Shown: one piece after another, positions 3,001-6,000 of the stretch
Numbering within the stretch: position 1 is the first letter of the stretch
Layout of the letters: every line of letters begins with the position of its first letter
IMG/VR virus record: IMGVR_UViG_2703718823_000005
Source: a virus
Lineage: Duplodnaviria > Heunggongvirae > Uroviricota > Caudoviricetes
Direction: 5' to 3' (one strand)
DNA: 46,805 bases
Position numbers: made by a program

Positions 3001-6000
3001 CACCACTGGCGAAGGGAAACCCGCAGCACACTAATCTGGTCGAGATCGAAAAAATATAACCCACGACAATCATAAATTCTGGCATGACATTTTGTTTGAA
3101 AAGCAATAAGTGAGTAATGATGAAAATCCATACCACAGAGGCGCTCATGAAGGCTGAAATCAGCCGTAGAAGTCTGATGAAAACCTCCGCACTTGGCAGT
3201 CTTGCGCTGGCAAGCAGTGCTTTCACTCTGCCATTTTCCCAAATGGTCCGGGCGGCAGAGGCTCCGGTAGAAGAGAAAGCGGTCTGGAGTTCCTGCACCG
3301 TTAACTGCGGGAGCCGCTGTCTGTTACGTTTGCATGTGAAAGATGACACCGTGTACTGGGTGGAGTCTGATACGACAGGTGACGACGTCTACGGTAACCA
3401 TCAGGTTCGAGCGTGTTTACGCGGGCGCTCTATCCGCCGACGGATGAATCATCCTGATAGGTTGAAATATCCCATGAAGCGCGTCGGCAAGCGCGGTGAA
3501 GGTAAATTTGAACGGATAAGTTGGGACGAAGCCCTGGATACCATCAGTGATAATCTTCGGCGGATCCTGAAAGATTACGGCAATGAGGCTGTACATGTCC
3601 TGTACGGAACAGGCGTAGATGGCGGAAACATCACCAACTCAAACGTCCCGTACCGTCTGATGAACTCTTGCGGTGGTTTTCTCAGTCGCTATGGCAGCTA
3701 CAGTACCGCACAGATCAGTGCCGCAATGAGTTATATGTTCGGTGCCAATGATGGCAACAGCCCGGATGATATCGCCAATACGAAACTGGTCGTTATGTTC
3801 GGAAATAACCCGGCAGAAACGCGGATGAGCGGCGGTGGTGTCACTTACTACGTCGAGCAAGCCCGCGAACGTTCAAACGCACGCATGATCGTCATCGATC
3901 CACGTTATAACGACACTGCTGCCGGGCGTGAAGATGAATGGCTGCCCATTCGCCCTGGCACCGATGGCGCACTGGCCTGTGCGATTGCCTGGGTACTGAT
4001 TACTGAAAACATGGTCGATCAGCCATTTCTCGACAAATATTGTGTTGGTTACGATGAAAAAACGCTGCCCGCCAACGCACCACGTAACGCGCATTATAAA
4101 GCCTATATTCTGGGCGAAGGGCCTGACGGCATAGCTAAAACGCCGGAATGGGCAGCAAAAATCACCAGCATCCCGGCAGAAAAAATTATCCAGTTGGCAC
4201 GAGAGATCGGTTCAGCAAAACCTGCTTATATTTGTCAGGGTTGGGGGCCACAACGACATTCCAACGGCGAGCAAACGTCCCGCGCTATTGCCATGCTTTC
4301 CGTTCTCACCGGTAACGTCGGCATAAACGGCGGCAACTCAGGTGTACGCGAAGGTAGCTGGGATCTGGGGGTAGAATGGTTCCCGATGCTTGAGAATCCT
4401 GTTAAAACGCAGATTTCCGTCTTTACATGGACAGATGCCATCGACCATGGTACGGAAATGACCGCGACCCGTGATGGTGTTCGTGGAAAAGAAAAACTGG
4501 ATGTCCCCATCAAGTTTTTATGGTGCTACGCCAGTAACACATTGATCAATCAACATGGCGACATCAATCACACCCATGAGGTGCTTCAGGATGACAGCAA
4601 GTGCGAGATGATTGTTGGCATTGACCACTTCATGACGGCCTCGGCTAAGTATTGCGATATCCTGTTGCCCGACCTGATGCCAACAGAGCAAGAAGACCTT
4701 ATCTCTCATGAATCTGCAGGGAATATGGGCTATGTGATCCTCGCCCAACCCGCAACCTCAGCAAAATTTGAACGCAAACCCATCTACTGGATGCTGAGTG
4801 AAGTCGCCAAACGCTTAGGACCAGACGTTTATCAAACCTTTACTGAAGGTCGCAGTCAGCATGAATGGATCAAATATCTCCATGCGAAAACGAAGGAACG
4901 TAACCCTGAGATGCCCGACTACGAGGAGATGAAAACGACCGGGATCTTTAAGAAAAAATGCCCGGAAGAACACTACGTCGCTTTCCGCGCATTCCGTGAA
5001 GATCCACAGGCAAACCCGTTGAAAACACCTTCGGGGAAAATCGAAATTTATTCTGAACGACTGGCGAAGATTGCAGATACCTGGGAATTGAAAAAAGATG
5101 AAATTATTCATCCCCTTCCTGCGTATACCCCAGGTTTTGATGGCTGGGACGATCCCCTGCGGAAAACCTATCCACTGCAGTTAACGGGCTTCCACTACAA
5201 AGCGCGTACCCACTCCAGCTACGGCAATATTGATGTGTTACAGCAGGCCTGCCCACAAGAGGTGTGGATCAACCCCATTGATGCTCAGGCACGCGGTATC
5301 CGTCATGGCGATACCGTGCGGGTATTTAACAATAATGGAGAAATGCTGATTGCCGCAAAAGTGACTCCGCGTATTCTGCCTGGCGTTACCGCCATCGGGC
5401 AAGGTGCGTGGCTTAAAGCGGATATGTTTGGTGACCGGGTCGATCACGGCGGCAGTATCAATATTCTGACCTCTCACCGCCCTTCACCGCTGGCAAAGGG
5501 AAACCCGTCGCACAGCAATCTTGTCCAGATCGAAAAGGTTTAAGGAGTAGCCCATGACCACACAATATGGATTTTTTATCGATTCCAGCCGCTGTACTGG
5601 CTGTAAAACCTGCGAACTGGCGTGCAAAGATTTTAAAGTTGGTTACGTATCGTTTAAAATCAATTAGATAGCCCGTCATTTCTGCGCTCACACGTCCCAA
5701 CATTGAAAAACATGCAAAGCTTTGTAAGCCGATGCAAAGCTTTGTGTGTCTCACTTTTGTCCCAATACCAATCCGAATCCACCCTTTGTCATCATTGAGA
5801 AATGGCAAGGAAGAAAAGGATGTTACTGCACGATTTGACAAATCTGCCAGAGCTATCGCATACTGACTGCACTACAACGTCAGCGGTCAACCGCACCCGA
5901 TAGCTTTGCGGCTTTTTTATGCCTGTTTACAGGTATCGCCATATCAATGGCGGGTCGAGAGAGCCTAATACAATACCCTTTCGGGAAATACGCTCCGCCG

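Follow-up and report, generated by a model that had tools for sequence, protein, structure and literature searches.

The ynfG attachment junction of a phiPOC-J13-like Stx1a prophage: a P22-type recombination arm and its phased repeats

The DNA considered here (IMG/VR record IMGVR_UViG_2703718823_000005, 46,805 nucleotides, referred to throughout as the window) passes from the host gene ynfG into prophage DNA, and the passage is marked by a motif that poses a question of function. TGCAAAGMTTT has exactly three matches in the 46.8-kb window, at 5623-5633, 5713-5723 and 5733-5743 and all on the + strand, where chance predicts 0.06; three copies were reached in none of 100 shuffles. The second and third matches lie in an exact 14-bp direct repeat, ATGCAAAGCTTTGT, with a period of 20 bp. 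A preliminary description proposed that the motif is the core of the attachment site, present at the junction and again twice just inside the prophage as recombinase sites. The three copies and the exact repeats are real, but the copy at the junction is host coding sequence, and the question divides accordingly: where does recombination take place, and what are the two phage repeats for? The features that bear on the answer are collected in Table 1.

Table 1. Features of the integrase-distal prophage junction and its arm (window coordinates)
Feature	Position	Strand	Remarks
Host ynfG 5' part, first 28 codons	5554..5638	+	frame continues into phage DNA to TAG 5665-5667
First motif copy TGCAAAGATTT	5623..5633	+	host ynfG codons Cys-Lys-Asp-Phe, not phage DNA; unchanged in empty site
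Common core TTTAAAG	5632..5638	.	probable 7-bp overlap (strand-exchange) region
Phage-side core-type half-site TTGGTTA	5639..5645	+	attP reconstructed and directly observed; role putative
IHF-like AATCAATTAGATA, weak candidate	5658..5670	+	between core and first arm site; partial match to WATCAANNNNTTR
Proximal P-arm Int arm-type site candidate, GTCCCA	5694..5699	+	+114 from int stop, same in ST64T/P22 and SfII
Spacer between arm-type sites, candidate Xis binding/bending segment	5700..5747	+	A-tracts 5706-5710, 5716-5718, 5726-5727, 5736-5738
Dyad / 17-bp stem-loop formed by the two repeats	5710..5749	+	terminator-like, int-sense strand
14-bp repeat, copy 1, ATGCAAAGCTTTGT	5712..5725	+	unit 2 of phased array, 5' hairpin arm; identical position in ST64T/P22-type attP
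14-bp repeat, copy 2, ATGCAAAGCTTTGT	5732..5745	+	unit 4 of phased array, 3' hairpin arm
Distal tandem arm-type site candidate 1, GTCTCA	5748..5753	+	one mismatch to GTCCCA; ST64T position same
Distal tandem arm-type site candidate 2, GTCCCA	5759..5764	+	11 bp from candidate 1

The prophage, its junction and its core

The complete genome JNEC-KY179 is colinear with the window and 99.97% identical to it over positions 2029-46784. In that genome int adjoins the 3' part of ynfG, ~63.6 kb away, beyond stx and outside the window, which confirms the earlier expectation that an integrase gene missing from this end would be found at the far one. The element is a phiPOC-J13-like Stx1a prophage in ynfG. 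Its Int is 100% identical to that of phiPOC-J13, whose integration into ynfG/S1742 has been shown by experiment to be site-specific (PMC4193171). The likeness to P22 starts here: Int (387 aa) is 71-73% identical to the ST64T and SfII integrases (tblastn, 377 aa) and matches Pfam Phage_integrase, the tyrosine-recombinase catalytic domain, with an E value of 1.5e-45, and xis overlaps the start of int, by ~145 nt. The excisionase gene is an intact 123-codon ORF with an HTH_17 match (E 7.5e-9), its product is ~70% identical to ST64T Xis, and the same xis/int overlap is found in ST64T, SfII, APSE-2 and HK542.

Three comparisons set the junction, namely with the unoccupied site, with the far end of the prophage and with a contig whose attP is intact, and all three bear out an att junction in ynfG. 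Intact ynfG genes from thousands of genomes align as far as window position 5638 (for a query starting at 5300, the last aligned query position is 339), and the empty-site sequence agrees. The break accordingly falls at 5638/5639, 5 nt beyond the right-hand end of the motif, and not inside its first copy (5623-5634), where the loss of ynfG homology had been placed. The ynfG 5' part of the same prophage appears in PGAP annotation as a '4Fe-4S binding protein', truncated. Of the deposited phage records, that of POCJ13 ends at window position 5639 and that of 75/02 at 5632.

The only sequence common to attB, attP, this junction and the far junction is TTTAAAG. It reads ...GATTTTAAAGATCTTGG in the empty site, ...CAACAACTTTAAAGATCTTGG at the far junction, ...GATTTTAAAGTTGGTTAC at this junction and ...CAACAACTTTAAAGTTGGTTAC in the intact attP of an IMG/VR contig (L128). 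TGCAAAGATTT, on the other hand, is present in the empty site and at this end and absent at the far end, where a search for TGCAAAGMTTT found no copy; the proposal that the motif is the att core is thereby refuted. Window 5632-5764 is the integrase-distal junction, attR in the lambda/P22 convention. TTTAAAG is probably the 7-bp overlap, and the exact positions of cleavage are putative. The core-type half-sites that would flank it are weakly inverted: CAAAGAT (5625-5631), the putative host half-site, is inverted with ATCTTGG across the core in attB, and the core of attP, both as reconstructed and as directly observed, reads as the palindrome CAAC-TTTAAA-GTTG. In lambda and P22 an IHF site sits between the core and the arm sites, and the weak IHF-like candidate has an analogous position.

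How, then, does the motif come to lie next to the core? The host copy matches at 10 of 11 positions, and a likeness of that degree between the 39 bp of junction-side host DNA and the 152-bp arm is reached in 37 of 1000 shuffles and by 7 of 139 real host 39-mers. With 4-5% of controls doing as well, the host copy is compatible with coincidence, and the statistical weight of the motif comes from the two phage copies. A chance origin of those two is ruled out: their position is kept in P22-type phages.

A P22-type arm and its candidate integrase sites

The segment 5639-5764 is homologous to the P arm of P22/ST64T attP, so that the 14-bp repeats are, as had been proposed, part of a recombination arm. 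Among nine ynfG prophages the P arm (5639-5885) is almost invariant, the flanking ant module diverging from ~5866; the arm varies by one change at a loop position and one 18-bp duplication, and no covariation was found among the nine. Phylogenetic footprinting was for that reason widened to the P22 family.

What stands out in the wider comparison is the hexamer GTCCCA. Its proximal P-arm copy belongs to CTGCGCTCACACGTCCCA, an 18-nt anchor with matches in at least 120 IMG/VR stretches. Beyond the spacer a tandem, GTCYCR-N5-GTCYCA, follows in all variants, and the same 11-bp tandem recurs in the P' arm, inside the 3' end of int. Measured from the int stop, GTCCCA lies at -51, -40, +114 and +179 and GTCTCA at +168, and ATGCAAAG units at +132 and +152; all of these offsets are identical in ST64T. 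To judge by this layout, the GTCCCA-type hexamers are likely to be the arm-type sites of Int, two in the P' arm and three in the P arm, and we take them to be the arm-type sites reportedly footprinted in P22 (Smith-Mungo 1994). The N-terminal domain of Int is 77% identical to that of the P22-type integrases and 52-54% identical to those of GF-2 and HK542, and in these two, the more diverged, both arms carry CGACACA or GGCACA instead. With a 2 (P') plus 3 (P) distribution of GTCCCA at P22-family positions, the earlier suggestion that the repeats themselves are arm-type or core-type Int sites is unlikely to hold.

The core-binding domain of Int is its most diverged part relative to the P22 type (60% identity). 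To judge from sequence, the integrase, the excisionase and the attP arms are of P22 type, and since the TTTAAAG core lies inside the ynfG ORF and splits the gene, the module is a retargeted relative of P22 attP and not P22 attP itself.

The 48-bp spacer and the function of the repeats

The repeats lie in a spacer between the proximal and distal arm-type candidates that is 48 bp long in 55 of 55 distinct variants. Across 13 sequence classes of this spacer, A-tracts occupy the same columns and TG steps are likewise phased; the power of AA periodicity at 9.5-10 bp, 1.25-1.36, compares with 0.21 +/- 0.06 for shuffled sequence, and 0 of 300 shuffles reach it. In the window the pattern takes the form of four TG-N-AAAG units, head-to-tail at 5703, 5713, 5723 and 5733 and ~10 bp each. 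The sequence class to which the repeat region belongs follows neither the identity of the core nor the type of Int. The DNA-binding (N-terminal) region of Xis is nearly identical in two loci (L050 and L094) with very different spacers, among ~8 loci that have both xis and the arm, which fits recognition by Xis of a common phased pattern. By elimination, and from the P22 footprints reportedly obtained by Smith-Mungo 1994 and Mattis 2008, we presume that the Xis site of P22 is in this spacer. Recombination directionality factors bind tandem repeats one helical turn apart and bend att DNA, P22 Xis being one of them, and secondary sites of P22 Xis are said to overlap Int sites (PMC7498355).

The junction, the core, the homology of the arm, the spacing and the phasing are matters of observation; from them we infer that the two repeats are, on balance, probably binding or bending units for Xis in a P22-type arm. 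Events at the site would then run as follows. Recombination takes place at the 7-bp core TTTAAAG, one putative half-site of which TGCAAAGATTT overlaps by chance. Int would be held at three P-arm sites, one proximal and two in distal tandem, and, at the other end, at two P' sites. The four-unit array, in which the 14-bp repeats are units 2 and 4, fills the spacer, and Xis protomers would bind it head-to-tail, one per helical turn, and so bend the arm; the bent arm would let arm-bound Int bridge to the core during excision.

Several features of the spacer count against this reading. The identity of the direct repeats is not conserved: the two units of SfII-type arms agree in 9 of 14 positions, and one locus (L112) has an unrelated second unit, the dyad being nevertheless kept. 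Compensatory changes at three positions of the stem described below point to selected pairing or symmetry, which a pure head-to-tail protein array does not predict, and phased A-tracts could curve DNA intrinsically, without contact by Xis.

Two ways of reading the repeats as binding sites for other proteins fare poorly. The motif could be a recognition sequence of the recombinase at the core, repeated inside the prophage as arm-type or core-type Int sites. Three copies in 123 bp, the 8-9-nt partial copy GATGCAAAG in the P' arm, 70 nt from the core, the resemblance of the annotated P22 core half-site ATGCGAAG to the repeat unit, and the core-adjacent inversion of CAAAGAT with ATCTTGG in attB speak for such a role. 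Yet the first copy is unchanged host sequence of chance-level likeness, the far junction has no copy, the P' arm contains no full copy of the 14-bp repeat, and its partial copy lies within int codons and is not kept in ST64T, SfII or L094. The two-arm layout belongs to GTCCCA, and the relatives with diverged Int N-terminal domains carry other hexamers. Spacer class, moreover, changes with no accompanying change in the Int N-terminal domain or the GTCCCA sites. Nor does it follow the core: with a common thrW core, ST64T and SfII are of different classes, and the ynfG phage and ST64T belong to one class but have different cores. We regard a recombinase role for the motif as very improbable, and even less credit attaches to the repeats as operators through which a dimeric protein would regulate ant, the antirepressor gene that follows. 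Such operators would account for the perfect 10-bp palindrome CAAAGCTTTG within each 14-mer, and ant does lie downstream (ATG 6073, + strand), with a sigma70-like promoter at 5835-5864. The same element, however, occupies the same position in P22, ST64T and SfII, where gtrABC follows and not ant; it is ~100 bp upstream of the promoter-like site, confined by arm-type sites on either side; and the ant module (5826-5978) forms a mosaic unit of its own, also present in 933W-like phages, in which this arm is missing. The related idea of a LexA box or ant operator was dropped, CTGT-N8-ACAG being absent and the element travelling with int, not with ant.

A role as RNA deserves more attention, though we hold it doubtful as the main one. 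As each 14-mer holds a 10-bp palindrome, the direct repeats double as the two sides of a 17-bp hairpin, and the int-sense stem-loop could be a terminator or insulator, or a processing site like lambda sib. In the excised phage it would terminate int transcripts running across attP, or make them unstable, and in the lysogen it would stop read-through from ynfEFG' into ant. The terminator-like match folds as + strand RNA at -22.7 kcal/mol (z -4.3) and as - strand RNA at -16.8 kcal/mol (z -1.5), the latter weaker because G-U pairs become A-C; this asymmetry is modest, with 66 G-U against 32 A-C within the helix, and merely suggestive. In the stem alignment 91.8% of cells are paired, compensatory changes occur at three pairs (CG/UA; CG/AU/GC; UA/CG), and the covariation score exceeds that of every one of 500 shuffles and of all slid controls, a significance that the shuffle control overstates because the sequences are related. 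In L112 the stem is retained even though the loop as well as the second unit is unrelated, and the records of SfII and phage L annotate a terminator at the position of the dyad. In lambda, sib/tI lies across att from int, as the dyad element does here. A co-directional downstream ORF is commoner in hairpin classes (27+/28-) than in non-hairpin classes (4+/20-), a crude count of non-independent cases. Against all this, about half of the spacer classes have no hairpin (z about 0) with the 48-bp frame and the arm sites the same, which rules it out as the function for which the spacer is conserved. Its likeness to an intrinsic terminator is mixed: the stem is stable but has only 5 G-C pairs, the + strand U-run (5755-5758) comes late for a terminator, about 6-9 nt past the stem, and many members have A-C mismatches in mid-stem (16 of 25 at pair 19-42). 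On the - strand UUUUU is found near a shorter, 10-bp stem.

Among database matches, that of Rfam mir-19 to the repeats (26 bits, where the gathering score is 50) reflects the hairpin only and was rejected; a match of Rfam sRNA-Xcc1 falls outside the repeat element. A terminator-like sequence at 5895-5920 was likewise set aside as an analogue of tI, since its fold is weak (z -0.9) and it is part of the ant leader module shared with 933W-like phages.

The part in an Xis array that we favour and a terminator or insulator role of the hairpin are compatible, and the latter may be additional in this subclass. In one large P22-type att subclass, to which this Stx1 phage belongs, we suggest very tentatively that the spacer could have been selected for dual use, as a protein-binding DNA array and as an int-sense RNA stem-loop. 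Like sib, the stem-loop would be contiguous with int only once the phage has excised or infected a cell, and in the lysogen it would shield ant from ynfEFG read-through.

Known systems and what the junction means

With P22 the module shares, besides its integrase and overlapping xis, the two tandem GTCCCA sites in the 3' end of int and the three P-arm sites, all equally far from the int stop in the two phages, the 48-bp spacer with its ATGCAAAG units, and a cargo-gene promoter that points away from attP just past the arm. It differs in its target. P22 inserts in the 3' part of the thrW tRNA gene and rebuilds it; the identity that it shares with this target is long and derives from the tRNA, and the 23-bp core given in its annotation has its centre ~42 nt beyond the int stop. 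The ynfG phage has an identity of only 7 bp, centred ~56 nt past the int stop and inside the ynfG ORF. The central ~80 bp are replaced with length exactly unchanged, and integration breaks ynfG, which is not rebuilt, so that the thrW pattern is not followed. The Int/Xis module of P22 attP was reportedly worked out by Leong 1985, Smith-Mungo, Chan and Landy 1994, Cho 1999, and Mattis, Gumport and Gardner 2008. Studies of P22 attP, Int and Xis are cited in PMC4111918 and PMC7498355.

Two Stx1 phages with ynfG/S1742 as their integration site, phiPOC-J13 and Shigella phage 75/02, are essentially identical elements (PMC4193171, PMC5447701, PMC10562709); their arms are 99.8% (POCJ13) and 91.6% (75/02) identical to the present one and the insertion point is the same, the host here being E. 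coli. These three papers name the target gene and do not describe the core and arm sites.

More distant is the resemblance to lambda. The P arm of lambda has Xis sites X1, X1.5 and X2 beside the Int site P2, with ~20 bp from X1 to X2 and the weaker site in between; these sites serve excision alone, and they bend the arm. Like these, the repeats are direct, in the int-distal arm, spaced by one helical turn and beside an arm-type site, in keeping with a general rule (PMC7498355). There is no sequence similarity, however, and Xis has 123 codons with HTH_17 here, against 72 aa in lambda. The array here lies between arm-type sites, with the IHF-like site nearer the core, and it has four units, not three, and dyad symmetry in addition. 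With sib/tI of lambda the dyad shares a stable stem-loop across att from int, joined to int only in non-integrated phage; it differs in that the stem is inside the arm and not beyond it, is shorter (17 bp with G-U pairs), and is not kept in all relatives.

This is ordinary biology worked out in detail, and it will not surprise a specialist in site-specific recombination. It establishes TTTAAAG in ynfG as the exact integration core, and defines the anatomy of the arm, for clinically relevant Stx1a phages of E. coli and Shigella, which is of use in calling prophage boundaries, in PCR typing of occupied and empty sites and in the design of excision assays. It also presents a P22-type module retargeted from a tRNA gene to a protein-coding gene by change in the central ~80 bp and in the core-binding domain of Int, while the Xis region, the arm sites and the distances between them stayed as they were. 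A spacer fixed at 48 bp, its A-tracts in phase in at least 13 sequence classes, offers a compact and testable rule for the geometry of the P22-family intasome.

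The junction in ynfG and its seven-base-pair core

Of 5,426 complete E. coli genomes searched, 5,322 have the ynfF-ynfG part, and in nearly all of these the alignment ends at query position 339, which is window 5638; 51 genomes run on into the phage part. The empty site in the K-12-type strain JB41 (L001) reads ...GCGTGCAAAGATTTTAAAG ATCTTGGCCCGG..., and the same place in the window ...GCGTGCAAAGATTTTAAAG TTGGTTACGTATCG...; together, the empty-site comparison and the alignment ends put the junction at 5638/5639. The preliminary description had correctly sighted an att junction at ynfG, but it let ynfG homology break at 5623-5634, and the copy of TGCAAAG(A/C)TTT that lies there is entirely ynfG coding sequence. 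Its likeness to the arm units (10/11) is reached by 3.7% of shuffled 39-mers and by 5% of real ones from the host. The underlying sequence facts are reproduced at their coordinates: the motif occurs three times (chance expectation 0.06), and the arm has two exact 14-bp direct repeats. Each 14-mer contains the perfect palindrome CAAAGCTTTG, so that the pair doubles as an inverted repeat.

The far junction, in the genome of strain JNEC-KY179, reads ...GGTGAGCAACAAC TTTAAAG ATCTTGGCCC.... Since attB and both junctions share no sequence other than TTTAAAG (5632-5638), this 7-mer displaces the longer motif that had been proposed as the att core. Joining the phage halves generates the attP ...AGCAACAACTTTAAAGTTGGTTACG..., with the palindrome CAAC-TTTAAA-GTTG at its centre. 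An IMG/VR contig (L128) has the identical contiguous attP between int and the arm; attP is thus directly observed, beyond its reconstruction. The POCJ13 and 75/02 records, which come from independent depositors, end at window 5639 and 5632. Core-type half-sites are usually laid out as an inverted repeat around a 7-bp overlap. The attB core flanks, CAAAGAT and ATCTTGG, form an inverted repeat with 6/7 positions matching, and we infer from this arrangement that they are the core-type half-sites and that the 7-bp identity is the overlap region.

Over the part that the JNEC-KY179 locus covers (2029-46784), the window is colinear with that chromosome and 99.97% identical. The JNEC-KY179 prophage extends over ~63.6 kb, past stx1a, up to a site-specific integrase adjoining the 3' part of ynfG, as had been anticipated in placing the integrase at the far end beyond stx. 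This integrase, which has the Phage_integrase catalytic domain, matches the one of Shigella phage POCJ13 at 100% identity (99.8% for the arm) and the Int proteins of the P22-family phages ST64T and SfII at 71-73%. Site-specific integration of phiPOC-J13 into S1742/ynfG has been established experimentally in S. flexneri and E. coli MG1655 (PMC4193171), and ynfG is the reported site also for phage 75/02 and an O113:H4 Stx1a prophage (PMC5447701, PMC10562709). Directly upstream of int, and overlapping it by ~145 nt, lies an intact 123-codon ORF with HTH_17, ~70% identical to the ST64T excisionase; this xis/int overlap is also annotated in ST64T, SfII, APSE-2 and HK542. In L002, the comparison sequence that includes the far junction, PGAP gives only a 66-nt helix-turn-helix pseudogene fragment over the intact P22-type xis ORF (12583-12954, - strand), which is probably an annotation artefact. 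At the far junction itself (L002 10972-11526, - strand) the P' arm adds GTG GTG AGC AAC AAC in frame to 3' ynfG; the fusion is a predicted 184-aa ORF (MVSNNFKDLGPEV...) without the first 4Fe-4S cysteine motif.

A P22-type arm with candidate integrase sites

When the sequence past the int stop is lined up with that of ST64T (P22-type), the two phages are homologous from ~+95 onward, with landmarks at equal offsets. They differ in the central part, where ST64T has a fragment of tRNA-Thr and the ynfG phage has TTTAAAG and the bases flanking it. Downstream of the int stop, the centre of the annotated P22 core (536-558 in the phage L and P22-pbi records, L139/L140) lies at ~42 nt and that of the ynfG-phage core (window 5625-5645 in this comparison) at ~56 nt. 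The first P-arm site is 114 nt from the int stop in P22 and in the ynfG phage alike; the central segment has therefore been swapped at constant length and the crossover point moved by ~14 bp.

Features of the ynfG-phage att region and the adjoining leader
Feature	Window position	Offset from int stop	Remarks
TGCAAAGMTTT	5623-5633, 5713-5723, 5733-5743		+ strand
GTCCCA tandem pair, P' arm		-51 and -40	11 bp apart; inside last int codons
GTCCCA, P arm	5694-5699	+114
A-tracts	5706-5710, 5716-5718, 5726-5727, 5736-5738		match shared spacer columns
Terminator-like stem-loop	5710-5749		17 bp
14-bp direct repeat ATGCAAAGCTTTGT	5712-5725, 5732-5745		exact
ATGCAAAG		+132 and +152	in both ynfG phage and ST64T
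GTCYCR, P arm	5748-5753	+168
GTCCCA, P arm	5759-5764	+179
Sigma70-like promoter	5835-5864		within module shared with 933W-like phages
Rfam sRNA-Xcc1 (RF02221) match	5949-6033		+ strand; 53.0 bits, exactly the gathering score; E 2e-8

The GTCCCA-type hexamers, which are split two (P') and three (P) over the arms and keep one orientation throughout, are candidate arm-type Int sites, a two-arm layout being what is expected of such sites; the arm-type site count for P22 of Smith-Mungo et al. 1994 is said to agree with two plus three. Hexamer type tracks the N-terminal 65 residues of the integrase. GTCCCA-type hexamers occur where these are 75-89% identical to those of the ynfG phage (ST64T, SfII, L050, L094 and APSE-2, the last counted for its P arm); in GF-2 and HK542, with Int N-terminal domains 52-54% identical, CGACACA or GGCACA repeats stand at the equivalent sites of either arm. 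Int has diverged most in its core-binding domain (60%), which fits a changed core specificity with arm specificity retained.

In two IMG/VR sequences (L057 and L095) the att region is a hybrid. Int and the P' arm, with GGCACA repeats, are of HK542/SfX type, and on the other side of the shared thrW core follows a P arm of P22/SfII type with GTCCCA repeats; this suggests that prophages at a single tRNA site are in tandem or have recombined. Beyond its own GGCACA-type P arm, the HK542 sequence (L016) has a P22-type relic ~220-270 nt downstream of the int stop: the spacer hairpin together with the distal arm site (GCACAAAGCCTTGCAATCCAGTGCAAAGATTTGTGTGTCTCAGTTTTGTCT).

The 48-bp spacer, its repeats and its hairpin

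The spacer that separates the proximal arm site from the distal tandem pair holds the 14-bp repeats and is the sole sizeable stretch of the arm left over after site assignment within the P22 attP of roughly 260 bp (PMC4111918). An IMG/VR scan with the 18-nt anchor CTGCGCTCACACGTCCCA found at least 120 stretches, representing 55 distinct arm variants, and the spacer is exactly 48 bp in every one of the 55. Spacer sequences fall into at least 13 classes (differing at >8/42 positions) that have a pattern rather than a sequence in common: A-tracts at columns 7-10, 16-18, 26-28 and 36-38, and TG steps at columns 13, 23, 33 and 43. AA periodicity power is 1.25-1.36 at 9.5-10 bp vs 0.21 +/- 0.06 in shuffled sequence (0/300 shuffles). 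In this array of four units, the repeats of the window form units 2 and 4, and unit 3 (TTTGTAAGCC) is a weaker copy.

Recombination directionality factors typically bend att DNA and bind it head-to-tail at tandem repeats spaced by one turn of the helix; for P22 Xis, cooperative binding and strong bending are cited, and its secondary sites overlap Int sites (PMC7498355). Spacer class does not follow the core: ST64T and SfII have a common thrW core and different spacer classes, the ynfG phage and ST64T different cores and a common spacer class. It also varies at constant Int N-domain and hexamers. The phased pattern, the behaviour of directionality factors, the leftover spacer and the independence of spacer class from core and Int N-domain lead us to read the 14-bp repeats as candidate Xis binding and bending units and not as Int sites. 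Their recognition as an att arm element stands; their assignment as core- or arm-type recombinase sites is probably wrong. The half-site ATGCGAAG of the annotated P22 core also resembles the repeat unit, a likeness given no weight because spacer class changes independently of the core. In L050 and L094, whose spacers are very different, Xis has nearly the same N-terminal DNA-binding part, which fits recognition of the phased pattern that they share. In strain TOE17 (L007), repeat 2 begins with G in place of A (5732), a position within the hairpin loop.

Alternatively, the stem-loop might be primarily an RNA element. In the classes related to P22, SfII and the ynfG phage the spacer is also a dyad, whose 17-pair stem is 91.8% paired (25 distinct sequences), with two-sided changes at three stem pairs (C-G/U-A; C-G/A-U/G-C; U-A/C-G) and a covariation score of 0.208 vs 0.153 in shuffles (0/500) and <=0.086 in slid controls; L112 keeps the stem though its second unit is unrelated. 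The int-sense strand folds as RNA at -22.7 kcal/mol (z -4.3); the other strand folds more weakly (-16.8 kcal/mol, z -1.5) because wobble pairs turn into A-C mismatches. In the records of SfII and phage L, the site carries a terminator annotation. However, about half of the spacer classes keep the same 48-bp frame without the hairpin (z about 0), many members have a mid-stem A-C mismatch, and the U-run is displaced from the stem. The stem-loop is therefore treated as secondary, probably a function of the P22/SfII/ynfG-phage subclass. As a terminator or insulator it could act on int transcripts and, in the lysogen, on ynfEFG read-through toward the antirepressor gene ant; it could also be a sib-like element. 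Neither role excludes Xis binding to the spacer.

Beyond the arm, and the standing of the element

Nine ynfG prophages hardly vary over the arm and the next 100 bp or so (5639-5885), and their sequence is mosaic downstream of about 5866. The segment 5826-5978 is ~84% identical to one located just upstream of antB in many 933W-like Stx2 phages (immediately upstream in P13374) and seems to be a regulatory module common to phage antirepressor genes and distinct from the att arm. The sRNA-Xcc1 match lies in the leader between the sigma70-like promoter and the truncated ant gene (ATG 6073), and its helices seem to be preserved in two leader versions of very different sequence among the ynfG prophages (alignment A1). 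Just beyond the arm, at about 5807, TOE17 has an 18-bp purine-rich insertion in which the AAGGAAGAAAAGG motif is duplicated locally. The late/tail region of this short-tailed Stx1 prophage contains a 2,806-codon ORF (10562-18982, - strand), an LPD5 domain-containing protein according to the annotation of the colinear genome.

Taken as a whole, the preliminary description rightly picked out an att junction and genuine repeats, but it named the wrong core and probably assigned the repeats to the wrong protein. The element belongs to the well-studied P22 attP family as a retargeted member and is carried by a known Stx1 phage; mildly new are only the core of 7 bp, the phased spacer that stays at 48 bp throughout the family, and the stem-loop with covarying pairs within that spacer.
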